Of a stretch of 47,691 bases of DNA, positions 1,584-20,558 are shown piece after piece. The stretch's first letter is position 1. Each line of letters starts with the position of its first letter. Origin of the DNA: an uncultured Coriobacteriia bacterium (GTDB lineage: Bacteria > Actinomycetota > Aquicultoria > CAYWVN01); assembly GCA_964461725.1 (NCBI GenBank), contig CAYWVN010000001.1:1-47691 (forward strand), in the 5' to 3' direction. Below the pieces are notes generated by a model that worked only from the letters and a program-made list of their open reading frames with translations, did no database searches and had not been told where the DNA came from. The position numbers and the translations under genes are program-made.

Positions 1584-1823
1584 CCTGCCCAAGATGGTCT
1601 TAAGGGCACGAGATCGTCGCTTCAGATTACCCATGACTTCTCGCTCAGCCGCGGCCATCCAAGGCCTGGTGTGGGCGTGCGGCGGCCTGTTCATGCAGCG
1701 TTCTCGCGTAACAGAGCGCGCGGTTTCTCGTTGTACTAGTGTCAGGGCAACAGGGGCCCGCCCGTGGCAACTTGAAGAGCTGTGCGGTTGCGGCGGCGGG
1801 GATTTCCAGACGGGGTAGGAGAC

Positions 1824-4800
1824 GTGGGCTTGAACGCGCGTGACCTCAGGCAAGCGCTGGATGATTCGCTAGAGCTGGTCCTGCACCAGGGCCTGCGCAC
1901 GGAACAGGCGGCCAAGCGCTTTCCCGAGTTGGAGAGTGACCTGTTGCCGTTGCTGAGGACGATGGCTGCTGCACGGCAGGCTCCGGCAATGCGGATGCCT
2001 GATCCCTCCAAGAACCGCGTGTGGGAGTCCGTAGAGGACAAGATCACGGCGACCGCTCCACCGGCCGGCCGGTTCCGTGTCAGGGCCGGGCGCTTCCTGC
2101 GTCACTTCAACTACCCCCAGCTGGCGGCCTCTTTCACAATGGTGAGCTTTCTGGTCGCCAGCTCGTGGGCGTTGGCGTCGGCGCTCACACCGGCGCCTGT
2201 GTCTAGCCCGATTCAACCTGACACGAGAGGCGGGTCCGTGGCGGCCGGAGCAGCGGGCGGCGTAACCGCGCCGGGGCAGCTGCCCACTGAAAGCTATGCT
2301 TCGGGCACCGGAGGCGGGATCAGCGTCAACCCGAGTTCCGGCACCGCAGGGTCTTCCGGATCGCTGTCGACCGGCGCCGGCTCGACCGTCGCGTCGGCCA
2401 ACACGGGCGATGAGGACTCCTCGGGCGGCTCCGGTGGTGACTCCGGCAGCTCGGGGAGTTCCGGTGGCGGCTCGTCGTCCACCAAGAAGCACAAGCCCAA
2501 GCCGCCGCAAGGCAACCACGGGACAGGCGACGAGGGCGATGGCCCTGGGCTGCCGGTGTCTACTCCGACGAGCCTGGCCGTCTACGCCGGCGACCTTGAG
2601 AATGATCTCTCGTGGGCGGCACCGGCCGACGCGAGCGGACGCCTCAAGGGCTACGACGTGTATCGGAGCGACACGGAAGACGGGACCTATCAGAAGGTCA
2701 ATGACGCGCCCGTTGCCTCCAGCGGATACGAAGATCCGATTTCGGAAGACGAACTCGGTCTCTACTACTACAAGGTCCGTTCGGTCTCCAAGTGGGGGCA
2801 GGAGAGCGGGCTCACGGAGGCGGAACCCAACCTGTACGTGAAGATCTCACACCGCTTCGCGGCTGCGGGCAGCGATGAAGTGATCGCGGCCAACGGCAAG
2901 CTCTCTTTCCTCGTGCCGACCGCTTCACTTACACAGGACACCACAGTTACCATCGACGAGCGCGACACCGCGCCGATCGTCGAAGACGCCCGCCAGGCGT
3001 CACCTCCCTACGACTTCGGCCCGGACGGGCTATCGTTCTCGGACAGCGCGCCGGCGCACTTGAGCATGGGCTACTACTTCGGGGTGAGTGACGCGGAGCT
3101 GGACCTGCTGCTGAGCACGACGGTGAATCTCTATTACTTCGACGAAGCGAGCGGCAGTGCGGTCCAGGTTCCAGACGGCGATGTCGCGGTCGACGGGGCG
3201 AGCAAGACCGTGAACGCCGCCGTGCGCCACTTTACCACCTACTGGTCGAGCGCCAAGGTCAATCCGCACGGCAACTCATCCAGTGGATCGACCGACTGGT
3301 GCACGAGCATCTGTCACGGACTGCACGGCGGGGGCTACAGTGCGACCAAGTGGAACGCCTACGACGTGTGTGTCCAGTGCCACGGCAACACCAACTCCTA
3401 CAACCCGCCCGCCGGAGCCGGTCTGACGACGACGGCCTACAACATCGAGGCCGGGTTCATAGACTGCGCCGACCAGACCTACTCTGATTCAACGATGTCG
3501 CGGCATCCGGCGCCGGAAAGCCTCATGGTCTGCAGCGCCTGCCACAGCCCGCATAGGAAGATAACCGATCTCACTGACAACTTGTATTACCGCTATCGGG
3601 ATCCCATAACGCCCGGCAACTATGCCAGCGCCTACACCTACTCCTACACCGCCAGCCCGCTCGGCAACGCTTTCTGTTGGGGGTGCCACGGGACGCAGGC
3701 CAACGTCTGGTCGGTGGCGGTGGGCCAGATCGCCTCGATCTCCTACTACACACAGTCGCTGGGGGACCACAGGACCGGCTACGAGTCGCTGGCGGCCCAC
3801 GACGTGTCGCTGCCGGCTTCCGGAGCCGCGCCCAACGCTTGGGTCCCGCCGACGTCTGCCCTGGGGGACAGGCAAGGTGTCAACCAGAGCACGAACATCC
3901 GATGTGAGAACTGCCATTATCACCACGGGACCAGCCAAGCGAGGGCACTGACGGGATACCGCCTGACGAGCTCCTATCAAGGTGGCCGGGAGGAGAACCT
4001 GTGCTACCAGTGCCACACGCAGACCTGGAAGGCCGGTATGAAGAACATCCGCGGCGAGTTCTCCAAGGCGTACTCGCACACGGTAGGCTCACAGACCTAC
4101 TACCACAACGCCTACAGCGAGAGCCTGACCGGGGTCATCGCCGGCCAGCGACACGTCGAGTGCGTCGACTGCCACAATACGCATCGCGCGAGGATGGGGA
4201 CGCACACCCGCGGGACCAACGCCGTGACGGGGGCGCTCGTCGGGGCCATGGGAGTCGTGCCCAACTTCGGGTCGACGACCGGCACGGCCGGCTCATACGC
4301 GATCACCCAGTCGGCGACGCGCGAGTACCAGATCTGTCTGCGCTGCCACTCCAGTTTCGACGCCTCCGCGCCTAAGGAGATCTCAATCGACTTCAACATC
4401 AACAACCCGTCGTATCACCCGGTGACATCGGTGGGGCGGAACAGCACGATGGCGGCCGGCACGCTGACCGCACCCTGGACGGCGTCGAGCACGATGTACT
4501 GCTCCGACTGCCACACGAGCGACTCGACGTCCATCTCCGGGCCGCACGGGTCGACCAACGCGTACATGCTGGCGCGCGCCTACTCGACCGCCTCGCGGAC
4601 CTCATCTACCGGATTCCTCTGCTACATATGCCACCAATACAACACCTACTATGCCGGAACCAACACGCAGTCGTACTTCAAGAAGTCGGGTAACGACAAC
4701 CTGCACTACACGCACGTGAATGCCGCCAAGGCGCCGCAGATGAACTGCTGGCGGTGCCACGACTCGCACGGCAGCGGCTTCAAGCAGCGTCTGATCGCCG

Positions 4801-6404
4801 AGGGGCGAGGCATCAACGCCTTCATCGGTCCCGCGCCCAGCAACTACTCGACTTCGAATTGCACGACCACCGGCTGCCATGGCTCGGACGACAACTGCTA
4901 CACGTGCCACGGCGAGACCGGCGGCAACCAGCGCGTGGTCTACCTGATGGGCCGCGGTTTTGCCGGCTCCGTGAACGGAGGTGTGGCCAAGACGTACCAC
5001 CACAACATGACGTCGCCGACGACGGCGTTTGCCGGGACTTCCGCGGATCCGCCGACGACTTCCGTCTCGACGAACACCTGCGAGGGTCGCTGTCACGCCA
5101 AGCATGCGGAGCATACCGGCACCAACGCCAAGTCACTCAGGGCCGGCAACGTGGAGCGCGAGCTGTGCCTCTACTGCCACGGCGTGGCCGGACGGGCCTA
5201 TCCGGCCCGGACGTTCACTTCCGTGTCGTACTCCGGGACGGCACATGACTACAGCACTCTGGGCTACACCGAGAACCGGTGGAACCCGAGCGTCGGCTAC
5301 AGCGCGAACTACCAGTACACCAAGAACTGCAACAAGTGCCATGCGCCGCACGGGACCAACATAAAGTATCTGGTCAACGAGGTAGTGGAGAACATGGGCA
5401 ATACCGGCTACGCCAACTACACTACGACGGCGGTCTCCGGCGAAGCCCAGCGGGATCGCGCCTGCTTCGCCTGCCACGGCCCAAAGGGCCCGGCCCCGCG
5501 TGACGTGAGCACCGCCTTCAATGAGTCCTCCAGGCACGACGTGTTCAGCACGGGGCAGGCCGGCCGCCATCAGGCGACCAGCACGGAGGCCACCGGTTCC
5601 GCCAACCGCCACGTGCTCTGCGAGGACTGCCATAATCCACACGGAGCCACAGCTTCGAACGTCCTCAGCGGGGTGTGGGGCGTGACGGTGAGCTACGGTC
5701 CACTCACCTACACGCGCATCGCGCAGGTCCAGACAGGCAAGGGGTGGCAGCTCTGCTTCAAGTGCCACAGCGGTTACGTGACTCTGCCGGCCGGAAGGCC
5801 GAACGTGGCAGTGCAGTTCACCCCCACAGTCGCTTTCCAGCACGGAGTCATGAGCGCCGGGGTCATGAACCCGAACGCCCTCATCGACGCCACGTTCGTG
5901 TCGCCGTGGACCAGGAACAGCCGAACCACATGCACGGACTGTCATGGTGACTCTGATTCGACCGCGCCCAAAGGCGTGCACGCCTCGGCCGCTGCGTCCA
6001 TCCTTCGGACGCCGACCAGCTCGGCGGCGCCCTCAGGCGCTTCCGACCAGTACGTCAACTGCTTCCTGTGCCACCGGTGGGAGGTCTACGACAACAATGT
6101 GGCGAACACTTCAGGCTCGCCCAGCGAGAACAACAGCCGGTTCGATCACAGTGGCTCCAACGGTGGCCATGACAAGCTGGTCGGAGACACGACCGTCTCA
6201 GGCATCTGGTGCCTGGCGTGCCACGGGGGCAAGGAAAAGGGCGGCATCCACGGGACCACGAACAACACGCTGCAGCATCTGAACGGGCAGTCCATCGCGT
6301 CCTATGCGAGCTTTACCGCCGGGACTATCACGTGTGACACGGTAGGTTCAGGCTCGGCGTGCACGCAGCACACCGGCGGCAAGTCGTATACCGCGAACTT
6401 CTAG
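1824..6404 (+). CDS. Giant membrane-anchored multihaem c-type cytochrome (19 CxxCH + 2 CxxxCH + 1 CxxxxCH, ~22 haem sites) with a cytoplasmic helical N-domain, one TM helix, a Ser/Gly-rich linker and an FN3-like domain
   Basis: Track ORF 1782..6404. Start is uncertain: GTG 1782, GTG 1824 or TTG 1830 (AGGAG at 1817-1821 is 8 nt before TTG 1830). TM helix YPQLAASFTMVSFLVASSWALASAL (~nt 2112-2192). S/G-rich linker at ~2292-2480. FN3-like segment LAVYAGDLENDLSWAAP...YYYKVRSVSKWG. Haem motifs run from nt ~3300 onward, many as CxxCHxxHG (CSACHSPH, CENCHYHHG, CNKCHAPHG, CEDCHNPHG). Variant sites: CTSICH, CTTTGCH, CEGRCH. Confidence 0.9.
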   Translation: MGLNARDLRQALDDSLELVLHQGLRTEQAAKRFPELESDLLPLLRTMAAARQAPAMRMPDPSKNRVWESVEDKITATAPPAGRFRVRAGRFLRHFNYPQLAASFTMVSFLVASSWALASALTPAPVSSPIQPDTRGGSVAAGAAGGVTAPGQLPTESYASGTGGGISVNPSSGTAGSSGSLSTGAGSTVASANTGDEDSSGGSGGDSGSSGSSGGGSSSTKKHKPKPPQGNHGTGDEGDGPGLPVSTPTSLAVYAGDLENDLSWAAPADASGRLKGYDVYRSDTEDGTYQKVNDAPVASSGYEDPISEDELGLYYYKVRSVSKWGQESGLTEAEPNLYVKISHRFAAAGSDEVIAANGKLSFLVPTASLTQDTTVTIDERDTAPIVEDARQASPPYDFGPDGLSFSDSAPAHLSMGYYFGVSDAELDLLLSTTVNLYYFDEASGSAVQVPDGDVAVDGASKTVNAAVRHFTTYWSSAKVNPHGNSSSGSTDWCTSICHGLHGGGYSATKWNAYDVCVQCHGNTNSYNPPAGAGLTTTAYNIEAGFIDCADQTYSDSTMSRHPAPESLMVCSACHSPHRKITDLTDNLYYRYRDPITPGNYASAYTYSYTASPLGNAFCWGCHGTQANVWSVAVGQIASISYYTQSLGDHRTGYESLAAHDVSLPASGAAPNAWVPPTSALGDRQGVNQSTNIRCENCHYHHGTSQARALTGYRLTSSYQGGREENLCYQCHTQTWKAGMKNIRGEFSKAYSHTVGSQTYYHNAYSESLTGVIAGQRHVECVDCHNTHRARMGTHTRGTNAVTGALVGAMGVVPNFGSTTGTAGSYAITQSATREYQICLRCHSSFDASAPKEISIDFNINNPSYHPVTSVGRNSTMAAGTLTAPWTASSTMYCSDCHTSDSTSISGPHGSTNAYMLARAYSTASRTSSTGFLCYICHQYNTYYAGTNTQSYFKKSGNDNLHYTHVNAAKAPQMNCWRCHDSHGSGFKQRLIAEGRGINAFIGPAPSNYSTSNCTTTGCHGSDDNCYTCHGETGGNQRVVYLMGRGFAGSVNGGVAKTYHHNMTSPTTAFAGTSADPPTTSVSTNTCEGRCHAKHAEHTGTNAKSLRAGNVERELCLYCHGVAGRAYPARTFTSVSYSGTAHDYSTLGYTENRWNPSVGYSANYQYTKNCNKCHAPHGTNIKYLVNEVVENMGNTGYANYTTTAVSGEAQRDRACFACHGPKGPAPRDVSTAFNESSRHDVFSTGQAGRHQATSTEATGSANRHVLCEDCHNPHGATASNVLSGVWGVTVSYGPLTYTRIAQVQTGKGWQLCFKCHSGYVTLPAGRPNVAVQFTPTVAFQHGVMSAGVMNPNALIDATFVSPWTRNSRTTCTDCHGDSDSTAPKGVHASAAASILRTPTSSAAPSGASDQYVNCFLCHRWEVYDNNVANTSGSPSENNSRFDHSGSNGGHDKLVGDTTVSGIWCLACHGGKEKGGIHGTTNNTLQHLNGQSIASYASFTAGTITCDTVGSGSACTQHTGGKSYTANF

Positions 6405-6427
6405 CCAGGAGAGGACGCACGGCCATT

Positions 6428-7825
6428 TTGGACACTCTCTTTGAACTACTGCGTTCGCGGAAGCTTGCCATAGGGCTCTTCATTGTGATCTCGGGGTTGG
6501 CCGTGGTGGGTACCATTGTGCCCCAGGCCCACCTGACACCGCCCGCGAGCTACCAAGCATTCTTGCAGAAGAACCCCACCCTGGCTCCCCTGGCCCAGAG
6601 GTTGGGTCTCACTGCCCTATACTACTCGTGGTGGTTCTACGCTCTTCTCCTATTGCTGCTGGCCAACACTGCGGCCTGCACCATCAGTCGCCTGGGTCCC
6701 CTGTGGCGCTTGCTGGCCGAGCCACCGTCGCTCAAGGACGCGCAGGCGATTGCGGCGATGCCCGGACACAGGAGCATCATGTGGCCGGACGTCCGGCCAT
6801 CGGACGGGGCCAAGCGGATCGGCGCGGTCTTCAGACGCGCCGGCTACGGCGTGAGACTGCACGAGGGCGAGTCAGGGACGCGGGCTGTCGCCTGGAAAGG
6901 ACGCGCCGGCCCGCTTGGCTCAATCGTCTTCCACTTGAGCTTCATCCCCATCGTGCTGGGTATTCTTTCCATGACGCTTTTTGGTCTTAGGGGAGTGGTT
7001 CTTGTCGACCAAGGAGAGCCGTGGAAGGAGGGCCACGGTGCGTATCTTTCTTTGAAGGAAGGCTATCTCTTTCGCGACCGCCATCCTGGGTTCCAGATCA
7101 CCTTGAACGGCGTCCGGCCCAGATACCGAAGGCGGGACCTTGTGGACCTGGCTGCCGACGTCACGGTGAACGGGGGGCTTGGGGAAAGGAAGCGGACAAT
7201 CGGTGTCAATCGCCCGCTGTCCCAGGACGGGTTTCTCCTTGTGTTGGACTCGTACGGGTTTGCCCCGCTGGTCCGGATTGCCGAGCGCGGTAGGGCGCGC
7301 TCCTACGCCTATATGAACCTCGGCTCGCGCGGTATCGAGGGCTCCGCCTTTGGGGACAGGTTCTCGATTGCAGGCAACCTGCAGGCGGACCTCCGCTTCT
7401 ACCCGGACGCCGTCTACGAGCGGGGCAAGGTGAGGGTTCTCTCACAGATCGCCCGCAGGCCTCTCGTCGAGCTGTTGCTTCGCCGGAACGGAAAGATCGT
7501 CTTCGACGGCCCGGTCGCGCTGGGAGGGACGGTGAAGCAGGGCGGCATGGCAGTGACGTTCTCCAAATGGCACCACTACGTAATCCTCAAGTTGATCAGA
7601 GACCCCGGCTGGTTCGTGCTGGTCGGGGGCTTCGTTCTGGCCGTTGCCGGACTAGTACTGCGCGCCGGCTTTGCATACCGCAGGTTCTGGATTGCGGTAG
7701 AAGCCCGCGGCAAGAGCCGACAGCTCCTCATGTCAGGAAGGAGCGACCGGTACGGCGCGTTCCTCGAACAGGAGATGGGGTCCTTGCTGTCAAGACTTCA
7801 GGAAGTCGGGGAGAAGGAGGCATAG
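6428..7825 (+). CDS. resB: Cytochrome c biogenesis protein ResB/CcsB (System II)
   Basis: N-terminus LFELLRSRKLAIGLFIVISGLAVVGTIVPQ is typical of ResB. TM helices flank a large extracytoplasmic loop. The likely start is TTG 6428, after AGGAGAGG (6406-6413); the track start 6359 would overlap the cytochrome gene. Confidence 0.8.
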   Translation: MDTLFELLRSRKLAIGLFIVISGLAVVGTIVPQAHLTPPASYQAFLQKNPTLAPLAQRLGLTALYYSWWFYALLLLLLANTAACTISRLGPLWRLLAEPPSLKDAQAIAAMPGHRSIMWPDVRPSDGAKRIGAVFRRAGYGVRLHEGESGTRAVAWKGRAGPLGSIVFHLSFIPIVLGILSMTLFGLRGVVLVDQGEPWKEGHGAYLSLKEGYLFRDRHPGFQITLNGVRPRYRRRDLVDLAADVTVNGGLGERKRTIGVNRPLSQDGFLLVLDSYGFAPLVRIAERGRARSYAYMNLGSRGIEGSAFGDRFSIAGNLQADLRFYPDAVYERGKVRVLSQIARRPLVELLLRRNGKIVFDGPVALGGTVKQGGMAVTFSKWHHYVILKLIRDPGWFVLVGGFVLAVAGLVLRAGFAYRRFWIAVEARGKSRQLLMSGRSDRYGAFLEQEMGSLLSRLQEVGEKEA

Positions 7826-8650
7826 GTGCTGTTCTATGAGACCATCTTCTTTTGGGTTGCGGTGGCCGGCTATGTCCTGGCCTTCGTCTATGGGCTTTTC
7901 TTGGTCGTCGCCCAGAAGGAATCCTCCCGGCTGTATGTTGCCCTGGCGGTGTCGGGTCTGGCTTGTCAGGCGGTGGCTATCGTGGTCAGGATTGACTATC
8001 TGTCGGCCCCACCGGTGCGCAATGTCTACGAGCTGAACATGCTGGGCGCCTGGCTGGTCGTGGCGATGTGGCTTGTTGTTCAGTGGAAATATCCGGAACT
8101 CAGGTCACCCGGGCTCGTCGTTCTAGCGGTGGCGTTCCTGATGATGGGCTTCGGCCTACTGTCACGGCCGGAGCTCAAACCCCTCACTCCGGCATACAAG
8201 AACCTATGGCTCTACGTGCACGTGTTCTTCGCCTGGTTTGCGTACGCGGCGTTCACAAGCGCATCGGCTGCCGCGATCTGGTTTCTATTGAGAGACCGCC
8301 CGCGGGCGCGTGCCGGGGACGAGCAGGCGGACCGGGCGCTGCTGGAACGTCTCGACTGGCTCGGCTATCGCCTGATTCTCTTTGGCTTCGCCATGAACGC
8401 AGTGATGCTTGTCTCTGGTGCGATCTGGGCTCGGGAGCTGTGGGGTAGCTACTGGAGCTGGGACGCGATAGAGACCTGGTCTCTGGTCGTCTGGCTGGCC
8501 TACGGTCTCTATCTCCACCTGAGAGCCAACTACGGCTGGAGGGGACGTCGGGCGGCCTGGTTTGCGGCTCTGGCGCTGCTACTAGTCAGCTTCAGCTTCT
8601 GGGGCGTAAACTACCTGACGTCTTCGGTCCATTCCTTCTACATGGCCTAG
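7826..8650 (+). CDS. ccsA: Cytochrome c biogenesis protein CcsA (System II haem lyase subunit)
   Basis: Trp-rich haem-handling motif WGSYWSWDAIETWSLVVWLAY in a polytopic protein. GTG 7826 directly follows the resB stop and is preceded by GGAGAAGGAGG. Confidence 0.9.
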   Translation: MLFYETIFFWVAVAGYVLAFVYGLFLVVAQKESSRLYVALAVSGLACQAVAIVVRIDYLSAPPVRNVYELNMLGAWLVVAMWLVVQWKYPELRSPGLVVLAVAFLMMGFGLLSRPELKPLTPAYKNLWLYVHVFFAWFAYAAFTSASAAAIWFLLRDRPRARAGDEQADRALLERLDWLGYRLILFGFAMNAVMLVSGAIWARELWGSYWSWDAIETWSLVVWLAYGLYLHLRANYGWRGRRAAWFAALALLLVSFSFWGVNYLTSSVHSFYMA

Positions 8651-8664
8651 CAGACACTCGATTC

Positions 8665-9333
8665 TTGGCGACTATGGCAAAACGTGCAGGGTCTAATCAG
8701 CGCGAGGGAGACCGGGGCTCCGGGGCAGGTGTCTGGAACGGAGCAGCTGGACCGAGCCGCGCGACCAAGCGCCCGGAGTCAGCCGAGCAGAAGGCGCCAT
8801 CCGAGCGGCCAAGGACGATGACCAAGGCACGTTGGGCGACCGTGCTTCTTGCCGCAGTCGCTCTTCTTCTGCTGGTTGTTACCGTGGCCTCGCGAAGAGG
8901 CCCCGCGGAGAAGATCGATTCCAGGGCGCTGGCCAAGGTACCACGGGAGTATCTGCTGCCCGGTGAACCGGTTGCCCGGGCTGAGGTCCTCGCGGGAGAA
9001 CGGCGGATGCCGATAATCAAGTGGCTTGTCGCCGTCAAACAGTACACCAACCTGCCCAGTCTCGCGGTCTGGAGGCGCTTCGACCGGGTATTGCGCTCGG
9101 GTGGCTTCGAGCACAATCTCACAGGAGAAGAGAAGCGGGACGACTACTTCTCCATGGACATGCTCAAGCCGGCCGGCCGCCTGCACATAGAGGTCTACCT
9201 CTATCCCACCCCGCAAGGTCCGAAGAAGAGCAAGTCCATCATCGTGTTGAGTCAGATCACCCACGATGCCTTCTCACAGGCGTGGTCACATCGCAATCAG
9301 ACACAGGCCGGCTCGCCTCAGCCTCCTGACTAG
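8665..9333 (+). CDS. Hypothetical single-pass membrane protein (charged N-tail, TM, ~140-aa extracytoplasmic domain)
   Basis: ORF with TM helix WATVLLAAVALLLLVVTVA. No motif recognised. The start is ambiguous (TTG 8665, ATG 8674 or ATG 8818). Confidence 0.45.
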   Translation: MATMAKRAGSNQREGDRGSGAGVWNGAAGPSRATKRPESAEQKAPSERPRTMTKARWATVLLAAVALLLLVVTVASRRGPAEKIDSRALAKVPREYLLPGEPVARAEVLAGERRMPIIKWLVAVKQYTNLPSLAVWRRFDRVLRSGGFEHNLTGEEKRDDYFSMDMLKPAGRLHIEVYLYPTPQGPKKSKSIIVLSQITHDAFSQAWSHRNQTQAGSPQPPD

Positions 9334-9558: not shown

Positions 9559-9582
9559 AACGGCAGCAACCGGAGGAGTAGG

Positions 9583-12806: not shown

Positions 12807-12817
12807 AAGAGAGCCCA

Positions 12818-13258
12818 TTGCATCGTCGCGCCCTTCGTCCGGTCTGGCTCGTGTTCCTGCTGACGGCAACGGTCGTCCTCTACGCGTGCATTCCCGGCAG
12901 GGTAGACCGGCCGCGGGTCGTTGTGTCCCGCTATCTCGGCTACCTGGTTGAGCGCAACTACGAGCGGGCCTATCCGTTGCTCGCTTCCTCGTTCCGAAAG
13001 AAGTACCAGGTCAAGGACGTCATGAGCGTGAGCGAGCGACTGCGGGGCGAGGGGGTTTTCTTCTCTCGGCCGGAGGTGAGGAGTGAACGCATCGATGGAG
13101 ACCGGGCGTTCGTCCGGTACTCCATCGCGGTGCGCGGGGGCGCCGGGCACAGCGGGCGCACCTACTCCGGGGAGTCCGAGCTCCGGAGAGAAGCGGACGT
13201 GTGGCGCATCGTGAAGATCGTCGCCCTGCCGCGCACGTGGCTGGAATCGACCGAGTAA
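12818..13258 (+). CDS. Small putative lipoprotein, function unknown
   Basis: Signal-like HRRALRPVWLVFLLTATVVLYAC with a lipobox-like LYAC. Track start GTG 12794 overlaps the NHL gene; TTG 12818 gives a more typical signal peptide. Confidence 0.5.
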   Translation: MHRRALRPVWLVFLLTATVVLYACIPGRVDRPRVVVSRYLGYLVERNYERAYPLLASSFRKKYQVKDVMSVSERLRGEGVFFSRPEVRSERIDGDRAFVRYSIAVRGGAGHSGRTYSGESELRREADVWRIVKIVALPRTWLESTE

Positions 13259-13270: not shown

Positions 13271-15352
13271 ATGGCCAAGAAGAAGCGGAAGACCGCACCG
13301 CCGCCGAAGAGCCTGCGATTCGAGGATGAGGTCATCGGCTGGCTCATCCTGCTGATCGTGCTGCTGGTTCCCACGCTGGTCTATCCTCCCATGCTCGACA
13401 TGTACGATCTTGCCAAAGCCACCACCGTGCGGATCCTGGTCATCTCGCTCTTGTTCTTCTGGTGGCTGCGGGTCTCGTTCGGGGAACGGGCGACGCTCCG
13501 GCGCGGTGTCGGCGACGCGCCTCTCGCGGCCTTCCTGACGATTCTGGGCGCGACCGTGGTGACCTCAGTGGTACCGATCATCAGCCTGGTAGGCGCGTTC
13601 AAACGCCATGAAGGCTGGACCACGTTCTTGGCGTACGGCGTGATCTACTTCACCACGGTGAACTTCGTGAGACGCTACTCCGACCTCAAGCGAATCCTCT
13701 TCGTCACTTTCGTCGCAAGCAACCTGGCCGCCATCTATGCCGTTCTGCAGCGGACCGGCATCCCGTATTCGTCCAGTTGGGGCCGCGGGTGGGACTGGCT
13801 GGCCTTCAGCGCGGATAAGTACGAGCTGGTGCGGGCGTTCTCCTCGCTGGGCAACCCAGTGTTCTTGGCCAGCTACATGGCCATGATCCTGCCGTTGGCC
13901 CTGGCCGCCTACTTCTCGGCTCGCGGTCTGGCGGACCAGGCATTCGCGGCCGTCACGGGGTTGCTGGCGCTGGCTGCGCTCATCTTCACCTATTCGCGCG
14001 GTGGTTGGTGGGGCGCGCTGGCCGGAGTGATCGTGCTGCTCGTGATGGCTGCTCCGGCCATCGCCCGTCGCTGGAAAGCTCTGGCCGTGGCGGTGGCGTT
14101 GATCGTGCTGCTCGGATGGCTTATCGACCTGGCACCGATCCAGCGGCAGGGAGTCGGCTCGTCCGTGATCGAGCGGGCCGTCTCATCCGTGAAGCTTGGC
14201 GAAGGCAGCACGGCGACGCGCGCGGAGATGTGGAAATCTACTTTCAACGTGATTAAGGCGCGTCCGCTGACGGGCTTCGGCCTCGAGGTGTTCAAGGAGG
14301 TCTACCCGCGCTACCGGACGGAGCGCCTGGTGCGGTTGGAGGGGGAGATGTCGCTGCCCGACCGGCCGCACAACGAGGCCCTCTATCTGGCAGCGACCGG
14401 GGGCATCTTCGCGCTGCTCGCGTACTTGTGGTTCCTGTTCGCCGTGTGGGGACGGGCGTTTCAATGGCTGCGCCGTTCCGAGTCTCAGGAGCAGAAGCTC
14501 GTAGTCGGCGGATTGATCGCGGCCACCGTGGCTGTCGAGGCCGCCGCCCAGGCGTCGTTCTCCATGATCACCGTGACCCCGGTCTTCTTCGTGATGATGG
14601 GGTTGCTGGCCGTGACGGCGCCTCCACGGGGCGGTCGGCAGGAGGTCTCGTTCCGACTGCCGGGGCTGGATTCGGAGGGGGCCCGCTATGCCGCGCTGGC
14701 CGGCGTGACCGTGCTGTTGCTCGCGCTAGGGGTGTTCTCCTGGCGGCTCGGTGTAGCCGACGTGTACTACAATGCTGGTGTCAATGCCGAGTCGATGGGG
14801 CAGCTTCCGACGGCACTGGTCGGGTACAGCGAGGCGGTGAGCCTGAACCCGTGGCAGAACATGTACCGGCTGAACCTGGGGGCGAGCCTTCAACGACAGG
14901 CGCAAGCATCGCGTGACCGGGGCATCGCCGACCAGGCGCTGCAGGTCTATCGTGACGGAGTGGCCATGGATCCCCTTGACGAAGACACGTGGGCCAATAT
15001 GGGCGACGCCTATCGTAACTACGCCGCGCAGTGGAACGACCCGGCCAAGCTGGACAACGCGATTGCGGCATACCGCCAGGCGATCCGGATAGATCCGTGG
15101 TTCGCCGCGCCCAACGAGGGCGCGGGGGCCATATGGATCCAGCGTAACCGACCCGCTGAAGCCATCCCCTATCTGCGGGCCGCGGTCAGGGTGGACCCGA
15201 AGAGAACTGAGAGTTTCTACCTTCTCGGTCTGTCCTACGAGGTCGGAAACCGGGTCGAGGAGGCCAGGGCGGCATTCCGGAAGGTACTCGAGTTGGACCC
15301 GAAGCACTCCGGGGCACGGAAAGAGCTGGCCAAGCTGACCCGGTCGAAGTAG
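13271..15352 (+). CDS. Polytopic O-antigen-ligase/Wzy_C-like membrane protein fused to C-terminal TPR repeats
   Basis: At least 10 hydrophobic helices. Wzy_C-like core (IFTYSRGGWWGALAGVIVLL, GFGLEVFKEVYPRY, PHNEALYLAATGGIFALLAYLWF). C-terminal TPR repeats (YSEAVSLNPWQ, AYRQAIRIDPWF, AFRKVLELDPKH). Confidence 0.75.
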   Translation: MAKKKRKTAPPPKSLRFEDEVIGWLILLIVLLVPTLVYPPMLDMYDLAKATTVRILVISLLFFWWLRVSFGERATLRRGVGDAPLAAFLTILGATVVTSVVPIISLVGAFKRHEGWTTFLAYGVIYFTTVNFVRRYSDLKRILFVTFVASNLAAIYAVLQRTGIPYSSSWGRGWDWLAFSADKYELVRAFSSLGNPVFLASYMAMILPLALAAYFSARGLADQAFAAVTGLLALAALIFTYSRGGWWGALAGVIVLLVMAAPAIARRWKALAVAVALIVLLGWLIDLAPIQRQGVGSSVIERAVSSVKLGEGSTATRAEMWKSTFNVIKARPLTGFGLEVFKEVYPRYRTERLVRLEGEMSLPDRPHNEALYLAATGGIFALLAYLWFLFAVWGRAFQWLRRSESQEQKLVVGGLIAATVAVEAAAQASFSMITVTPVFFVMMGLLAVTAPPRGGRQEVSFRLPGLDSEGARYAALAGVTVLLLALGVFSWRLGVADVYYNAGVNAESMGQLPTALVGYSEAVSLNPWQNMYRLNLGASLQRQAQASRDRGIADQALQVYRDGVAMDPLDEDTWANMGDAYRNYAAQWNDPAKLDNAIAAYRQAIRIDPWFAAPNEGAGAIWIQRNRPAEAIPYLRAAVRVDPKRTESFYLLGLSYEVGNRVEEARAAFRKVLELDPKHSGARKELAKLTRSK

Positions 15353-15405: not shown

Positions 15406-15435
15406 TGGACGGATGGGCACAGTCTGGGGTATAGT
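15406..15435 (+). promoter_or_regulatory. Possible promoter TGGACG-18 nt-TATAGT
   Basis: Found by eye in the 342-nt gap before the second cytochrome gene. The -35 matches 4/6 and the -10 matches 5/6. Confidence 0.3.
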
Positions 15436-15694: not shown

Positions 15695-18451
15695 ATGATA
15701 GTGGTGAAGAGAGGGGTTCTGGGGCTCTCGGCGTCGATTGCCGTGATGCTGGCGTTGGCCGGCCTTTGGGCACCGGTTGCGTCGGCCGCCAACGCTCACT
15801 CCAGCTACTCGCGGGGGACGGAGCGATGCCGCTCCTGTCACTTCAACCACACCGCCGCGGAATCGGACAGCCTGCTCAAGACGTCCACTGTGTCAGGCAG
15901 CTGCCGGATGTGCCATGACGGTACTGGGAGCGATTACGACGTCGAGGCGGGGACCGCGTTCGGTAAGCCGGCTCCTGCCGGGAACGCGGCCATGCGCTCG
16001 GGTCGGACCACATCGGCCCATGACCTGGACGTGACGACCAAGGCGCCGGGTGGCTCCGGTAACTGGATCGAGATGGACTGCGCGGCGTGCCATGCCCCGC
16101 ACGGTTCGGAGAACTTCCGGAACCTGCGCGAGAATATCCTGGGACGGGCGGTCTCGGTGTCGGCGGATGTTCGCCCGGCGACCTCCACGTCCGCCGAGGT
16201 TGTCACATACAAGGGTGGCAACGTTGAGTTCTGCACCGCGTGTCATACGACCTACTACCAGGACACCTCTCGGGGGCACTACTTCCTCAGGTCGGCCGGC
16301 AAGGCGGAGGCCGGATCACGGTTGATTTGTGAGGACTGCCACAACTCCCATGGCTCCCGCGGCACCGGCAGCATCTTGTCCGAGGAGCTTCTGACGGCGG
16401 TCAGGGGAGAGCGGCTGTTGGCCAGCGGCGGGTACCAGCGCTTCGTCTCTCTGGAAAGCGATGCTTGGGACAGCCGGGTCGGGGTGACAATCTATGTTAA
16501 CGGTCATCGTGCCGACGGGAACTACAAGGTCAACTACGACGAGGCCTACGTGCAGTTCGACGCCCCGCTGGATGACAATGCCAAGGTGACCGCCGACTAT
16601 CGGCGTACCGGGGTCTCGAAAGGCTCAAGCGGGCGGAGGCGAAGGGACGCGTGCCTGGCGTGTCACCACGCCAAGAACGCTCCGGCTCTGTATGGTCGCC
16701 AGCCGGTGCAGATGCTGACCGGCATGGAGGGTCACGATATCGGACTTCTTCGCCCCTGTCAGGACTGCCACGGCGACGTGCATGACGTCGGGCCCGGCGA
16801 CAGCGGGTGCTACCCCTGCCACTCCGAGTTCGACCCGGTGAGCGGCAAGAGCGGTCCGGCCTCGGACCTGCTGTCGCTCATGGGCGAGTCGAAGAACGGG
16901 CTGGCACCCAAGGTGAAGTACCACCACACGATAACGGACGGGCGTAGTGCGGGCACCAACTCCTGCGAGGTCATGTGTCATGCGCCTCACCCGCACTACA
17001 GGGGCGCGGCCTCCGCGGGCGCTTCCGCGCACACCTGGCTCACCAGCCCGGCTCTGGGTACCGTAGAGGTCAGCATGGCCGCCCGGACGGACTACGACTA
17101 CGTTGGCGCGGGCGGCGGTGGGGTGTGCCTCTCCTGCCACTCCGCCGACTCCAAGGTAGTCCCCAGCGACCTCCAGGTCGACGCGCGCGTCTATCAAGAC
17201 AGTCTCCACAGCTACAAGACGGCCGTCTACGACGCCGACTTCGGTTCGAGCGCGGCCGGCGACGGTACGTTCTACGAGGCGGGTTGCGCGAAGTGCCACT
17301 CTCCGCATGGCTCGAATCTTCCAGGCATGATGCGGCAGGCCATCAAGGACACGGGTTTGTCCGAGGAGGGCCGGGTCCATGAGGTGAAGACCGATTCGAG
17401 GGGACGGCTTAGCGATTCCGTCTGCTATGCGTGTCATGCGGAGGCGAGCTCGGGCCTTCCGACCAGCAGCTATAGCCTGCTGGCCTATCCGTTCGGCCCC
17501 GCGACCGACAATGGCTCGGCGTTCTATCCCGGGCGGGGGTCGCTCGTCGACTATGATCGCGCCCGCTGGCCCGGATTCGACGTGTATGCCGAGTCGGCCC
17601 ACGGGAACAAGACCGACGCCCAGATGCGTTGGCCGGGTACCGACTCCGGGCAAGGGTCCCCGTACGCCAAGGACGCCGATCTGTCCTACACGCGTGAGGC
17701 ACCGGTGGGCGATGAAGGCAAGTGCAAGAACTGTCATGCGACACACGGCTCCAGCGAGAACGACATGCTGCTGGCGGCCTACAGCGGAACGGCCGGCGAA
17801 ACGCAAGCGATCAACAACGTGTGCTTCGTCTGCCACGACGCGGACGGGCCCGCGCAGAACATCTACCAGTACTACGACAGCGATGCTGCCGGGCCGTCGG
17901 CTGGGCACGCACTCAAGGTAGGCGGTGCGGGCAAGGCGGCCGGCTACAAACTGCTCTGCAGCGATTGTCACGCACCGCACGGCTCCAAGAACGGAAACGG
18001 CGCCATGCTGTCCGACAGCCTGAACACCAGCAGCTACCAGCTGTCCGCGCCGGACGACCCGGCCAGCCACGATGCGACCTGCATCGCTTGTCACGGCAGC
18101 CCGGGAGGGAACTACGGCGCGCAAGTTGCCGGCCGCGTCATGTATGGGCACGCTATCGTCACCACTCCGGCCGATCACGCCGAGAAGACCGGCCGGTGCC
18201 TCCATTGCCACGGACCGGCCCACGCGCCGAGTTCGGGGACGGCTTCCGGGGACGAGTGCTACAGCTGCCATCCCGACGGTACGCCAGAGTCAGGTGGCGT
18301 CACGGGCGGCACAGATGGCGGCACTGGTGGCGTCACGGGCGGCTCCGAGGGCGATACCGGCGCGGCGACCGGCGGCTCCGCAGGGACTATCGGCGGCGCG
18401 TCATGGGGCGTTCTTCAAGGGGCAACATCGGCCGTCAAGAACAGGCGTTAG
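15695..18451 (+). CDS. Secreted multihaem c-type cytochrome (17 CxxCH + 1 CxxxCH, ~18 haem sites) with a Gly-rich repeat tail
   Basis: Signal peptide MIVVKRGVLGLSASIAVMLALAGLWAPVASA/AN. Motifs CRSCH, CRMCH, CAACHAPHG, CTACH, CEDCHNSHG, CLACH, CQDCH, CYPCH, CEVMCH, CLSCH, CAKCHSPHG, CYACH, CKNCHATHG, CFVCH, CSDCHAPHG, CIACH, CLHCH, CYSCH. The track start 15608 lies upstream of the signal peptide. Confidence 0.9.
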   Translation: MIVVKRGVLGLSASIAVMLALAGLWAPVASAANAHSSYSRGTERCRSCHFNHTAAESDSLLKTSTVSGSCRMCHDGTGSDYDVEAGTAFGKPAPAGNAAMRSGRTTSAHDLDVTTKAPGGSGNWIEMDCAACHAPHGSENFRNLRENILGRAVSVSADVRPATSTSAEVVTYKGGNVEFCTACHTTYYQDTSRGHYFLRSAGKAEAGSRLICEDCHNSHGSRGTGSILSEELLTAVRGERLLASGGYQRFVSLESDAWDSRVGVTIYVNGHRADGNYKVNYDEAYVQFDAPLDDNAKVTADYRRTGVSKGSSGRRRRDACLACHHAKNAPALYGRQPVQMLTGMEGHDIGLLRPCQDCHGDVHDVGPGDSGCYPCHSEFDPVSGKSGPASDLLSLMGESKNGLAPKVKYHHTITDGRSAGTNSCEVMCHAPHPHYRGAASAGASAHTWLTSPALGTVEVSMAARTDYDYVGAGGGGVCLSCHSADSKVVPSDLQVDARVYQDSLHSYKTAVYDADFGSSAAGDGTFYEAGCAKCHSPHGSNLPGMMRQAIKDTGLSEEGRVHEVKTDSRGRLSDSVCYACHAEASSGLPTSSYSLLAYPFGPATDNGSAFYPGRGSLVDYDRARWPGFDVYAESAHGNKTDAQMRWPGTDSGQGSPYAKDADLSYTREAPVGDEGKCKNCHATHGSSENDMLLAAYSGTAGETQAINNVCFVCHDADGPAQNIYQYYDSDAAGPSAGHALKVGGAGKAAGYKLLCSDCHAPHGSKNGNGAMLSDSLNTSSYQLSAPDDPASHDATCIACHGSPGGNYGAQVAGRVMYGHAIVTTPADHAEKTGRCLHCHGPAHAPSSGTASGDECYSCHPDGTPESGGVTGGTDGGTGGVTGGSEGDTGAATGGSAGTIGGASWGVLQGATSAVKNRR
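18293..18391 (+). repeat. Three imperfect 33-bp (11-aa) Gly-rich tandem repeats at the C-terminus of the second cytochrome
   Basis: GGTGGCGTCACGGGCGGC occurs at 18293-18310 and again at 18326-18343. The protein reads GGVTGGTDGGT / GGVTGGSEGDT / GAATGGSAGTI. Confidence 0.7.
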
Positions 18452-18457
18452 TCCACA

Positions 18458-18841
18458 TTGAGTACGGGTGCGGCGCTCCTCGTCTACACCAACAACTACC
18501 TGCATGACTTCTCAGCGGCCGTGTTCCTCGCCAACGCTGTCCTTACCTACTGGGTCGGCCGCGCGTTGACCGAACGGGACGACGTCGGTACCCGGGAGGC
18601 CTTTGTCCGCATCTACCGCAAGTCTCTTGTCATCACCGGCATCAGCGGCGGCGGCATCGTCGTGGGCGGGGTCATCCGCGCTCTGGCCTACGTGCGCTAC
18701 GAATGGGCGCCGGCGGCGGGTTCGGGTCAGATCACCGTACTGCTGGTGAAGCACGTCGTCTTCGCTCTGACCGTCGTGGCGGCGCTGTATCTCCAGTTGG
18801 GGCCTGTCCGGGCGATGCTGCGGGAGCCAAGAGGGAGATGA
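18458..18841 (+). CDS. Small ~3-TM membrane protein of unknown function, immediately after the second cytochrome
   Basis: TTG start 6 nt after the cytochrome stop. Hydrophobic helices AALLVYTNNYLHDFSAAVFLANAVLTYWV, SLVITGISGGGIVVGGVIRALAYV and ITVLLVKHVVFALTVVAALYLQL. Two conserved-looking His residues. The stop overlaps the next start (ATGA). Confidence 0.55.
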   Translation: MSTGAALLVYTNNYLHDFSAAVFLANAVLTYWVGRALTERDDVGTREAFVRIYRKSLVITGISGGGIVVGGVIRALAYVRYEWAPAAGSGQITVLLVKHVVFALTVVAALYLQLGPVRAMLREPRGR

Positions 18842-19584
18842 CGAACGGTTCAGGGTTGGACATCATCTCTCTCTGGCGGTCGGTCGTGTCCGCCGTCGAC
18901 GAGGAAGCCTACGGGCCCGATCCCCAGCTCGCGTCTCTTCGAGACGATGTCCCGCGATGCGCCCGGGCATTGCTCGTCTTCCTGGCAGCCGACGCGAGCG
19001 GCAGCAAGGTCGACGACGGCACTCTGATCAGGACGGCAACCGCAATCGAGCTGCTGGGCATCGGCATCTCTCGCCACTACGAGCCTCCGGCCGACACCGG
19101 CGATCCTCAGCTGGATCTCATCGCGGGCGATTTCTGGTGTGCGCGCAGCATGCAGGTGGCCGCGTCGCTGGGACGGCCTTGGCTAAACGGCCTGCTTGCC
19201 GGGGTCGTGGCGGAGACGGCCGTGGCCGAGAGTGAGCTCTCCGACGGGGAGCTGTCCGCCGGGCAGGCCGCCCGGGCGCTGGGCCGCCGGGCGGAGCTGT
19301 ACGCGACGGCCTGCGAGGTGGCGGTGGCAATTGGAGCGCCGGAGTACCGCCGGGAGGGACCCGTGGAGCGCTGGCGCGAGGCGGGGCGTCGCCTTGGCGT
19401 GTTGAAGCTGGCGGCGTCGGATTCATGGGCGACGGTCCGAGAAGCGCTTGATCCCGATCACCTGTCCGTATGTCGCGCGGAACTGACCTCGCTAATCGAC
19501 GAGTACGCTCATGGCCCCGGGGCAGAGTCCCTGCGGGCCTACTGCGAGAGCACGGGAGACTGGACACCCGGGGGCGCCAGATGA
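18838..19584 (+). CDS. Polyprenyl-synthase-like protein lacking both DDxxD motifs (putative non-catalytic partner subunit)
   Basis: Reads like a trans-prenyltransferase fold (TATAIELLGIGISRHYE where LxHxxSLxHDDxxD is expected; LIAGDFW), but the catalytic Asp-rich motifs are absent. ATG 18838 overlaps the previous stop, and its own stop overlaps the ATG of the next gene. Confidence 0.5.
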   Translation: MTNGSGLDIISLWRSVVSAVDEEAYGPDPQLASLRDDVPRCARALLVFLAADASGSKVDDGTLIRTATAIELLGIGISRHYEPPADTGDPQLDLIAGDFWCARSMQVAASLGRPWLNGLLAGVVAETAVAESELSDGELSAGQAARALGRRAELYATACEVAVAIGAPEYRREGPVERWREAGRRLGVLKLAASDSWATVREALDPDHLSVCRAELTSLIDEYAHGPGAESLRAYCESTGDWTPGGAR

Positions 19585-20558
19585 CGGGCGGCGCAGGCGA
19601 TCTCCAGCTTTCCTCTGAGGTGTTGGCGGGCCTGGCAGAGGTCGAGTCGACAATGGAGGCGCGTCTCCGGGCGACGTCGGGGCGAATCGCTTCGGCAGCC
19701 CTGGAGACGGCGGCTGCCGGGGGCAAGCGTCTTCGGCCGACGCTGGTGCTTGTCTGCGGCAGCGGGGCGGGCGATCCAACGAGGCTCCGGCTGGCGGCGG
19801 CCGCGGTCGAGTTCATCCACACGGCCTCGCTCGTGCACGATGACATCTTGGATGAGGCGACGACCCGGCGCGGGCGCCCGACGGTCAACGGACTCATGGG
19901 TACCCGGGCGGCTACGGAGACAGGCAATCTCCTCCTCGGCTTGGCGTTTCAGATGCTGGCCGAGTTGGACGATGTGGAGGTGATGCAGGAGGCGTGCCGC
20001 ACCATCGTCGCGCTCACCATGGGGGAGCTGCACCAGCGCGCGGCGGTCTTCGACGCGGGCGTGTCGGAAGCCGACTACCTGGTCCGAGTCGAAGAGAAGA
20101 CGGCCACCCTGATATCCGTCTGCTGCCGCATCGGGGCGCTCTTGGCGGGCTTGCCGGTCGGCGAGACCAACACGCTGTCGCTGTTCGGGACCGAGCTCGG
20201 GCTGGCCTTCCAGATCTACGACGACATCCTGGACATCGCGGGCGATTCCCAGGAGCTCGGCAAGGTCGTGGGCACGGACATCAGGGAGGGCATGGTCACT
20301 CTCCCGATGATCTATGCCTTGAGGGATGATCAGGTGGCGGCACGGCTTACCGATCTGATTACCAGGCGTGATGCCACCGACGCTGAGGTCACGGAGGCGA
20401 TCGGACTCATGGAGTCGTCAGGCGGTCTGGAGGCGGCGCGCCGGAAGGCGCGGTCGCTGGCCGACCGGGCGGCCGTCCGGGCCGAGGGTCTGGGCTCCCA
20501 GGAGACGCGCCGGCAGCTGATGGACATGGCCAAGTTCGTCGTGGCGAGATACCACTAG
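19581..20558 (+). CDS. Long-chain trans-polyprenyl diphosphate synthase (menaquinone side-chain type)
   Basis: First Asp-rich motif FIHTASLVHDDILDE and second motif FQIYDDILD. GKRLRP near the N-terminus. ATG 19581 (ATGA overlap) is preferred to the track start 19470. Confidence 0.85.
   Translation: MTGGAGDLQLSSEVLAGLAEVESTMEARLRATSGRIASAALETAAAGGKRLRPTLVLVCGSGAGDPTRLRLAAAAVEFIHTASLVHDDILDEATTRRGRPTVNGLMGTRAATETGNLLLGLAFQMLAELDDVEVMQEACRTIVALTMGELHQRAAVFDAGVSEADYLVRVEEKTATLISVCCRIGALLAGLPVGETNTLSLFGTELGLAFQIYDDILDIAGDSQELGKVVGTDIREGMVTLPMIYALRDDQVAARLTDLITRRDATDAEVTEAIGLMESSGGLEAARRKARSLADRAAVRAEGLGSQETRRQLMDMAKFVVARYH

Follow-up and report, generated by a model that had tools for sequence, protein, structure and literature searches.

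The window analyzed here is a 47,691-bp stretch of DNA, ~65% in guanine plus cytosine (GC), in which nearly all long open reading frames (ORFs) lie on the + strand; all positions are numbered on the whole window. The subject is a same-strand (+) block that encodes two giant multihaem cytochromes, MHC1 and MHC2, together with maturation and accessory proteins. In order, the block comprises MHC1, ResB, CcsA, a 222-aa protein, a radical-SAM enzyme, a small tetratricopeptide repeat (TPR) protein, an NHL protein, a lipoprotein, a Wzy_C protein with a C-terminal TPR domain (Wzy_C-TPR), MHC2, a protein with three transmembrane (TM) segments and two prenyl genes. An original prediction, made from the letters of this DNA, described a single co-directional block around two giant cytochromes with its own resB/ccsA pair, a membrane protein, a radical-SAM/TPR/NHL/lipoprotein/Wzy-TPR module and a 3-TM protein, and proposed it as an electron conduit of a monoderm bacterium. 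ORF, Pfam and NCBIfam results agree that the block is coherent and has this composition. In the profile check proposed there (Pfam/TIGRFAM), ResB, CcsA, B12-binding plus Radical_SAM, TPR, NHL, Wzy_C and polyprenyl_synt all scored above threshold. The ResB and CcsA genes are adjacent and form a System II pair, and the lipobox and the hydrophobic segments match the description of the remaining members. The coordinates of the block and of other features of the window are collected in Table 1.

Table 1. Features of the 47,691-bp window and the basis for their assignment
Feature	Position	Strand	Basis or remark
Promoter-like site, TTGACA-16 nt-TATCAT, 11/12 matches	1412..1439	+	Upstream of MHC1; consensus match only, no evidence of function
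MHC1, membrane-tethered 22-haem cytochrome	1782..6404	+	Haem motifs, TM segment, composition; database gene call starts at 1830 (1524 aa)
ResB (System II cytochrome c biogenesis)	6359..7825	+	PF05140, 198.6 bits
CcsA-type cytochrome c assembly protein	7826..8650	+	PF01578 (Cytochrom_C_asm), 136.7 bits
222-aa single-TM protein, function not assigned	8665..9333	+	Not conserved in related loci; no significant Pfam match
B12-binding radical-SAM enzyme, BchE-like	9526..11064	+	B12-binding and Radical_SAM domains
Small TM-anchored TPR protein, predicted N-in with TPR domain outside	11137..11820	+	Pfam TPR; homologues directly upstream of NHL in many loci
TM-anchored NHL six-bladed β-propeller	11820..12806	+	NHL, 107.6 bits
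154-aa lipoprotein	12794..13258	+	Lipobox LYAC (ISGC in homologue); window and contig L001 only; no Pfam match
Wzy_C (O-antigen-ligase-like) polytopic membrane protein, C-terminal TPR domain	13271..15352	+	PF04932, 77.4 bits (cut-off 31.7)
Promoter-like site, 9/12 matches, weak	15406..15435	+	Gap upstream of MHC2; consensus match only
MHC2, secreted 18-haem cytochrome, 918 aa as called	15695..18451	+	Longest ORF starts at 15608
OmcS-like hexahaem unit, MHC2 N-terminus	15695..16680	+	Signal peptide and haem motifs 1-5; motif 6 after ~80-aa β-rich insertion
127-aa 3-TM protein, conserved His	18458..18841	+	Three hydrophobic segments; CopD E 0.02, below cut-off; conserved only in L001
Degenerate polyprenyl-synthase paralogue	18838..19584	+	No Pfam/NCBIfam match; first Asp-rich motif lost; hhalign probability 78%, E 1.8e-5
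Long-chain trans-polyprenyl diphosphate synthase (HepT/solanesyl type)	19470..20558	+	polyprenyl_synt, 219.4 bits
Amidohydrolase, backbone anchor gene outside the finding	20629..21972	+	Used for placing the organism
Tat-exported [NiFeSe] hydrogenase, small and large subunits	26350..29085	+	In-frame TGA at 29002-29004
Small c-type cytochromes	30624..31205	+	~50-aa monohaem ORF at 30624-30776, then gene with CXXCH in two frames

MHC1 contains 19 CXXCH, two CX3CH and one CX4CH motifs, 22 haem sites in total. Its N-terminus is predicted to be cytoplasmic and is followed by a single TM segment at ~aa 114-136 (nt ~2121-2189), a linker of 126 residues (aa 137-262, nt ~2190-2567) that is 25% Gly, 21% Ser and 10% Pro, a β-rich region of ~240 residues (aa 263-505, nt ~2568-3296) and a haem domain of ~1040 residues (nt ~3300-6401). 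The haem domain has 34 His residues outside the motifs for its 22 haems, which is sufficient for bis-His ligation, and the Pfam matches are to Paired_CXXCH_1, Cytochrom_c3_2 and Cytochrome_C7. The motif, TM and composition analyses thus bear out the ~1530-aa anchored cytochrome with ~22 haem sites and a Ser/Gly linker that was described originally. The FN3/Ig-like domains of that description did not hold up: the fn3 match has an E of 0.021 and 15.5 bits against a cut-off of 25, the AlphaFold pLDDT (per-residue model confidence) is 35, and Pfam searches with sub-segments of the N-terminus and the β-rich region gave nothing significant. Some free OmcS-like hexahaem proteins in three of the related loci described below (L104, L111 and L115) bear an N-terminal domain of ~100 residues with an FN3-like sequence pattern that resembles the region before the MHC1 haem domain, and Pfam finds no fn3 there. 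Among 5.8 billion proteins, a search for close homologues of MHC1 returned only MHC1 itself and one match with 14% coverage. A 19-haem, 1052-aa protein in the related cluster L141 is 25% identical to MHC1 over 767 aa.

MHC2 contains 17 CXXCH and one CX3CH motifs, 18 in total, and a Sec-type signal peptide ending in A-S-A, in line with the secreted ~920-aa cytochrome with ~18 haem sites that had been proposed. It has only one close homologue, P0002 (51% identity), which is encoded on contig L001. When 1.84 billion representatives were searched in full with HMMER, no further full-length relative came up, and beyond its own cluster there are partial-module matches only.

The feature of MHC2 that the original prediction missed is at its N-terminus, where the secreted cytochrome opens with a unit like those of the Geobacter cytochrome OmcS. 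The comparison was made through a family of hexahaem proteins of 310-425 residues whose genes adjoin NHL genes (family A8; alignment of 325 positions). The best solved relative of A8 in the PDB is Geobacter OmcS (6ef8), with an E of 1.5e-13 and 53.8 bits and a collinear match over OmcS residues 7-339; the match of A8 to OmcE is weak (E 1.2e-4). Residues 1-221 of MHC2, which span the signal peptide and haems 1-5, align with A8 positions 1-288 in hhalign at a probability of 99.8% and an E of 2e-28, and hmmsearch matches MHC2 to A8 with an E of 6.5e-30. The sixth motif (RRRDACLACHHAK), which follows the insertion, was assigned by eye and resembles the C-terminal DNRGVCxxCHxK of A8. The MHC2 N-terminus therefore holds a collinear hexahaem unit in the order and spacing of the OmcS-type family. 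MHC2 also has a His three residues past its first CXXCH (CRSCHFNH), at the position of the invariant H46 of A8. In OmcS the equivalent His16 of the CXXCH-x-x-H motif ligates a haem of the neighboring subunit; the residue alone does not establish that role in MHC2.

Haem-rich sequences inflate profile scores. A motif-preserving shuffle reached an hhalign E of 5e-9, so that a raw E of ~1e-10 between haem-rich segments is inflated, and each segment was therefore re-scored against 12 motif-preserving shuffles. Against A8, MHC2 1-300 gave z = 14.8, compared with 3.0 for MHC2 300-620 and 4.8 for MHC2 600-918. The MHC1 segments gave z = 7.0 (500-900), 3.5 (850-1250) and 4.6 (1150-1540). NapC-like and other cytochromes of the same loci match A8 only at E ~1e-3. 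The profile comparisons make the assignment of an OmcS-type unit to the MHC2 N-terminus firm. Both giants look like concatenated OmcS-type units, for which the shuffle scores outside the MHC2 N-terminus give moderate to weak support.

The accessory proteins encoded between the two cytochromes are predominantly membrane bound. Basic residues precede the single TM segment of both the small TPR protein and the NHL protein, and their repeat domains should therefore face outward. The Wzy_C-TPR protein has YSRGGW and PHNE motifs, in which the Arg and His that are conserved in the external loops are found. The motifs flank an 88-residue loop, and four TM segments follow it, one more than in the ligase WaaL, which would place the TPR tail outside. 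Among the members of the Wzy_C superfamily are O-antigen ligases, polymerases and protein O-oligosaccharyltransferases. The radical-SAM enzyme is BchE-like, and its assignment as BchE proper was rejected on a TIGR02026 score of 416.6 bits against the equivalog cut-off of 481.35.

Porin and outer-membrane families were not matched by any ORF of the window in Pfam/NCBIfam, and the block has no unassigned ORF that is big enough to be one. MtrA/DmsE-type periplasmic decahaem cytochromes were likewise not found, with TIGR03508 scores of 42.1 and 64.1 bits against a cut-off of 192.2. The family searches agree with the original statements that the locus lacks a porin or β-barrel and is unlike the porin-cytochrome (Mtr/Pcc) model, since there is no barrel and the DmsE-family scores are far under the cut-off.

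The accessory genes recur with multihaem cytochromes in other genomes. A profile built from four Wzy_C-TPR proteins has two nearest homologues (37% and 32% identity), and both are flanked by multihaem cytochrome genes, while the distant Wzy_C-TPR proteins (at most 27% identity) lie in polysaccharide or unrelated loci. Locus L082 (54% GC) encodes an 8-haem and a 13-haem cytochrome and a second Wzy_C protein, followed by the prenyl genes and the amidohydrolase. In L083 (40% GC), two Wzy_C-TPR genes bracket genes for five cytochromes (6-20 haems), Rex, a small TPR protein that is 38% identical to that of the window and an NHL protein that is 32% identical.

A metagenome scan with the NHL alignment returned 80 loci of 38-73% GC, 41 of which are at least 8 kb long. 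An ORF with at least four CXXCH motifs is present in 44 of the 80 loci, including 28 of the 41 longer ones. An OmcS-like ORF is present in 41 of the 80 and lies within 600 bp of the NHL gene in 39 of these. A full-length Wzy_C-TPR gene occurs in 12 of the 41 loci of at least 8 kb, a small TPR gene stands directly upstream of the NHL gene in many loci, ResB/CcsA genes are found in several, and a BchE-like radical-SAM gene is found in two independent ones (L098, 55% identity; L122, 50%). By comparison, multihaem, OmcS-like and Wzy_C-TPR genes are all absent from 72 control loci (1.28 Mb) that came from an amidohydrolase scan.

The gene orders of these loci differ. L124 has Wzy_C-TPR, TPR, NHL and a hexahaem cytochrome. 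L098 has TPR, a 17-haem cytochrome, TPR, NHL, a hexahaem cytochrome, NHL, a 1495-aa 20-haem cytochrome, ResB, CcsA, a ResB-like protein and radical-SAM. L141 has GT4 and ManC, Wzy_C-TPR, Rex, TPR, NHL, cytochromes, ResB, CcsA, NHL and the 1052-aa 19-haem cytochrome. Pfam confirmed that the proteins assigned in such loci as GT4, ManC, Rex, Bac_transf and UbiE belong to these families. The sub-block of a giant cytochrome with ResB and CcsA is thus repeated in L098 and L141, together with radical-SAM in L098. The accessory set of NHL, small TPR and Wzy_C-TPR recurs beside OmcS-like cytochromes across many lineages. Whether the module co-varies with the cytochromes was a check proposed with the original prediction, and the outcome is positive for TPR, NHL and Wzy_C-TPR; the radical-SAM gene accompanies them in few loci.

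The related loci have further features of their own. L122 (~2.5-17.7 kb) carries six paralogous hexahaem ORFs of 310-500 aa in a row around one NHL gene, followed by the radical-SAM homologue. Genes for Rex-type repressors are located in or beside cytochrome/NHL/TPR clusters in L083 (6067-6714), L141 (8422-9057) and L117 (20115-20780), which points to regulation by NADH/NAD+; the block in the window has none. A 1580-aa protein with NHL repeats and Ig-like and CHB_HEX_C domains is encoded in L117 (1879-6621) directly upstream of Wzy_C-TPR, TPR and NHL, and is a giant surface propeller protein of the same cluster type.

The 3' end of the block belongs to a conserved chromosomal backbone. The closest related contig, L001 (20 kb), has syntenic genes for CcsA, TPR, NHL, the lipoprotein, Wzy_C-TPR, MHC2, the 3-TM protein, both prenyl proteins, the amidohydrolase and two further proteins, and its synteny with the window extends beyond the end originally given for the block, to ~23.6 kb. 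The downstream part of the backbone (20629-23635 in the window) is shared with seven further loci (L002-L008) and encodes the amidohydrolase, RseC, an acidic protein starting with DQDFFFDEE and a TPR protein. Across deep Coriobacteriia, the 5' part of the backbone consists of genes for a B12 radical-SAM protein (~600 aa) and a UbiE methyltransferase, or of two prenyl-synthase genes instead. Cytochrome islands lie upstream of the backbone in other genomes as well: in EMTCatB1 a cytochrome of at least 32 haems with ResB and CcsA is in the syntenic position, two metagenome-assembled genomes (MAGs) have Wzy_C-TPR, TPR, NHL and 15-haem and 12-haem cytochromes there, and another MAG has a cytochrome of at least 16 haems with ResB and CcsA. 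The prenyl genes and the amidohydrolase belong to this conserved backbone, which is of menaquinone type and has received differing cytochrome islands, and are not part of the cytochrome module. Of the two menaquinone-type prenyl synthases proposed originally, one is a bona fide polyprenyl synthase by its polyprenyl_synt score, but it reaches only 222.7 bits against the HepT model, whose cut-off is 456.55, and the upstream ORF is only a degenerate paralogue without a family match that is possibly a non-catalytic small subunit.

The amidohydrolase was used to place the organism. In a scan of the genome collection, its eight best matches are 43-60% identical and all others are at most 30% identical. 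The eight come from Coriobacteriaceae bacterium EMTCatB1, several Coriobacteriia MAGs and MAGs labelled Actinomycetes or Eubacteriales. These matches and the shared backbone suggest that the organism belongs among the deep-branching Coriobacteriia (Actinomycetota). Cultured deep Coriobacteriia have Gram-positive walls and 66-68% GC (PMC9686372). On this placement the host is most likely monoderm, which agrees with the original prediction.

Downstream of the block, the window encodes the amidohydrolase, RseC, TatA/TatC, a NiFe hydrogenase with a Tat signal, HycI, small cytochromes, HypA/B and selenocysteine genes. The Tat-exported hydrogenase and small cytochromes noted originally are therefore present, as TatA/TatC, the small and large hydrogenase subunits, HycI and cytochromes at ~30.6-31.2 kb. 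The large subunit (27505-29085) contains DP-TGA-LACAVH, in which TGA stands in for the first Cys of the C-terminal motif DPCxxCxxH, and the reading frame stays open as far as 29085; this indicates a [NiFeSe] hydrogenase, the ORF of which standard gene callers split. Beside the hydrogenase genes, a full selenocysteine toolkit (33133-39498, +) consists of a class-V aminotransferase, a SelD-type AIRS protein, SelA, SelB and tRNA-Sec, and the tRNA-Sec at 39406-39498 has an Rfam score of 74.7 bits and an ARAGORN anticodon of TCA. In the small cytochrome gene at 30783-31205 (+), one frame has a signal peptide and one CXXCH and an overlapping frame (30818-31201) ends with two more CXXCH, a pattern that a frameshift or a mis-assembly in the gene of a trihaem c7-like cytochrome may explain. 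Immediately upstream of a gene for a periplasmic binding protein (PBP_like_2, 46431-47486) is a riboswitch for the molybdenum/tungsten cofactor (RF01055, 66.3 bits; 46310-46458, +). At the other end, an ORF that enters from the window start (16-1269, +) combines an AcrB/RND fragment (profile positions 505-638 of 1021), two CXXCH motifs, a PKD domain with 47% identity to a portion of an 18-haem cytochrome from L117, and an uncharacterized C-terminal domain. It could be a truncated gene, a chimeric gene or an assembly join.

The reading that we favor, with a probability of roughly 60%, is that the block encodes a cytochrome-based envelope electron conduit of monoderm deep Coriobacteriia and represents a widespread but little-characterized cluster type in which OmcS-like cytochromes are accompanied by TPR, NHL and Wzy_C-TPR helpers. 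In such a conduit, ResB and CcsA would attach haem to both apocytochromes at the outer face of the membrane. MHC1 would be held by its N-terminal TM segment, and the ~126-residue Gly/Ser linker would let the ~1040-residue, 22-haem domain reach into or through the wall. MHC2, secreted by the Sec pathway and carrying 18 haems with the OmcS-type hexahaem unit first, would extend the chain to the surface. The TPR, NHL and Wzy_C-TPR proteins may fold, position, glycosylate or wall-anchor the cytochromes. Electrons could enter from the menaquinone pool, or from the neighboring periplasm-facing [NiFeSe] hydrogenase via the small cytochromes, and could be passed on to a partner cell, an electrode or insoluble Fe(III). 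Flow may also run the other way, inward, as proposed for cathodic uptake by EMTCatB1. Where the proteins reside, whether they span the wall, which way and by what route electrons move and what each accessory protein does are all inferred from sequence and context.

Several points weigh against this reading. The whole proposal for this organism draws on sequence and context, and its monoderm status rests on the taxonomy of one flanking gene and on synteny. A quinol dehydrogenase of the NapC/NirT, CbcL or ImcH type was not found within the window, although NapC/CymA-like genes of 11-12 haems occur in the related loci L003, L005 and L141. MHC2 has no recognizable wall anchor (LPXTG, SLH domain or lipobox). 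A profile built from MHC2 only does not match OmcS significantly (E 0.18), so the link between MHC2 and OmcS is transitive through A8. The AlphaFold2 models of MHC1 aa 251-510 from a single sequence (pLDDT 34.8) and of MHC2 from a two-sequence alignment (pLDDT 26.5) are too low in confidence to be used, and they provide no haem-chain geometry. The lipoprotein, the 3-TM protein and the 222-aa protein are lineage specific, and the radical-SAM gene is absent from L001.

Three other explanations were weighed. MHC2, or both giants, might polymerize or stack like OmcS, with TPR, NHL and Wzy_C-TPR as the machine for assembly and anchoring and MHC1 as the base. The OmcS-like N-terminal unit of MHC2 with its CXXCH-x-x-H motif, the tight adjacency of NHL and OmcS-like genes, the position of an NHL gene beside omcS in Geobacter, and the pili-like appendages that Parvivirga formed only with ferrihydrite (PMC9686372) are all compatible with a filament. 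MHC2, however, extends ~600 residues and 12 haems past the OmcS-like unit, and such a covalent concatenation would make polymerization unnecessary; its low-confidence AlphaFold result provides no structural model, its direct match to OmcS is the non-significant one given above, and polymerization is a property that sequence cannot reveal. A filament is therefore possible but unlikely. A broader and equally tentative idea, which we would not expect to prove correct in full, is that deep-branching monoderms build wall-spanning or extracellular wires from OmcS-type units, either free hexahaem subunits or units concatenated into proteins of 18-22 haems, with the TM-anchored TPR and NHL proteins and Wzy_C-TPR as an unrecognized machine for assembly, glycosylation and anchoring in cells that lack an outer membrane, MHC1 as the base and MHC2 as the distal part.

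The cytochromes could instead be membrane-proximal reductases or electron stores of a periplasm-like respiratory chain for a soluble acceptor such as nitrite, sulfite, tetrathionate or polysulfide. There are sub-threshold matches to NrfA (PDB 3ubr, E 0.0095; Cytochrom_C552, 16.6 bits) as well as to octahaem tetrathionate reductase (28.6 bits, where the cut-off is 375), and EMTCatB1 encodes genes for nitrite respiration (PMC7943316). Searched directly against the sequences of all chains in the PDB, the two cytochromes gave nothing significant except the marginal NrfA match. Neither a CXXCK motif nor a catalytic-family score anywhere near its cut-off was found, and a catalytic nitrite, sulfite or tetrathionate reductase was rejected on these grounds. 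The 18-22 haems, the spacing of ~48 residues per haem, the flexible tether and the OmcS-type units favor conduction over catalysis, and a respiratory enzyme is very unlikely. We give a similarly slim chance to a coincidental neighborhood, in which Wzy_C-TPR, TPR and NHL serve a cell-wall glycopolymer unrelated to the cytochromes and are grouped with them by lineage synteny. The Wzy_C-TPR gene of L006 follows a Bac_transf sugar transferase with no cytochrome nearby, that of L141 follows the GT4 and ManC genes, distant homologues lie in polysaccharide loci, and the 3' genes of the block are backbone genes. But the association recurs at 38-73% GC and in differing gene orders and is absent from the 1.28 Mb of control loci, for which shared ancestry alone is insufficient. 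Glycan and cytochrome roles are also compatible, for example through cytochrome glycosylation.

The conduit reading makes the locus a meeting point of two questions, how electrons pass Gram-positive walls and how cytochrome nanowires are assembled. To our knowledge, passage through the thick Gram-positive wall is known from a few Firmicutes, and nanowire assembly is not understood even in Geobacter. The NHL, small TPR and Wzy_C-TPR proteins are concrete candidates for an assembly or anchoring pathway that operates without an outer membrane, and their genes provide a signature by which electroactive monoderms could be recognized in metagenomes from the subsurface, from sediments and from bioelectrochemical systems.

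Parts of this system have published counterparts. In Geobacter, the gene for the NHL protein GSU2505 lies just downstream of omcS; the protein is implicated in anode reduction and was proposed to function in OmcS assembly or expression (PMC9070056). The window is similar in that the MHC2 unit belongs to a hexahaem family that has OmcS as its best solved relative and an NHL gene accompanies the cytochrome. OmcS is a 407-residue hexahaem protein of a diderm, whereas the MHC2 unit is fused to 12 more haems in 918 residues in what is probably a monoderm actinobacterium. Unlike in the GSU2505 system, the NHL protein of the window is TM-anchored, and the likeness of the two is at the level of the NHL family. 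The omcE clusters encode β-propeller proteins and further multihaem cytochromes, often followed by glycosylation and TPR genes with resB/ccsB nearby, and extra densities on the Geobacter sulfurreducens OmcE filament were attributed by the authors to likely glycosylation (bioRxiv 10.1101/2025.10.22.684050). The window shares with these Desulfuromonadia clusters the combination of multihaem cytochromes, propeller, TPR and ResB/CcsA-type genes. The OmcE clusters always include a large β-barrel and have lipoprotein propellers, whereas the window has no barrel and its helpers are anchored in the cytoplasmic membrane. The range of the Wzy_C superfamily and the hints of OmcE glycosylation make it plausible that the helpers fold, glycosylate, position or wall-anchor the cytochromes.

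Among monoderms, Dethiobacter alkaliphilus has NHL and TPR proteins within its multihaem clusters for extracellular electron transfer (EET), with a proposed role in secretion, orientation or assembly (PMC10376724). The resemblance to this Gram-positive, whose multihaem clusters contain NHL- and TPR-repeat proteins, is by description; Wzy_C-TPR, a relationship to OmcS and giant tethered cytochromes are not in that report. Multihaem-based EET has also been proposed for Anaerosomatales (PMC9686372) and EMTCatB1 (PMC7943316), which have 17-18 multihaem genes and use H2. Parvivirga, which has 17 multihaem genes, obligately reduces Fe(III) (PMC9686372), and the EMTCatB1 cytochromes are expressed on a biocathode, for which inward (cathodic) uptake was proposed (PMC7943316). 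They belong to the class in which the organism of the window is placed, with Gram-positive walls, a GC content of ~66-68% and multihaem genes tied to Fe(III) reduction or cathodic uptake. The two cytochromes of the window have no close homologue there, and the accessory module is undescribed in PMC9686372 and PMC7943316. The likeness to the conduits of Thermincola and Carboxydothermus (OcwA and others) is one of concept, a multihaem chain that runs from the membrane through a monoderm wall without a porin. Unlike their several proteins of 6-11 haems, the window encodes giants of 18-22 haems, with no significant PDB sequence match beyond the marginal one to NrfA.

The original prediction regarded the gene combination as undescribed, which stands in part. 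NHL beside omcS, NHL/TPR proteins in Gram-positive multihaem clusters and EET in deep Coriobacteriia are published, and Wzy_C-TPR and the giant fused units set the locus apart. The locus is genuine and coherent and is plausibly a monoderm EET conduit, though not one of an undescribed kind. What distinguishes it from the known systems is the apparent fusion of OmcS-type units into 18- and 22-haem proteins, the membrane tethering of one of these giants, the TM-anchored helpers, the recurrent Wzy_C-TPR, the absence of a barrel and the actinobacterial host.

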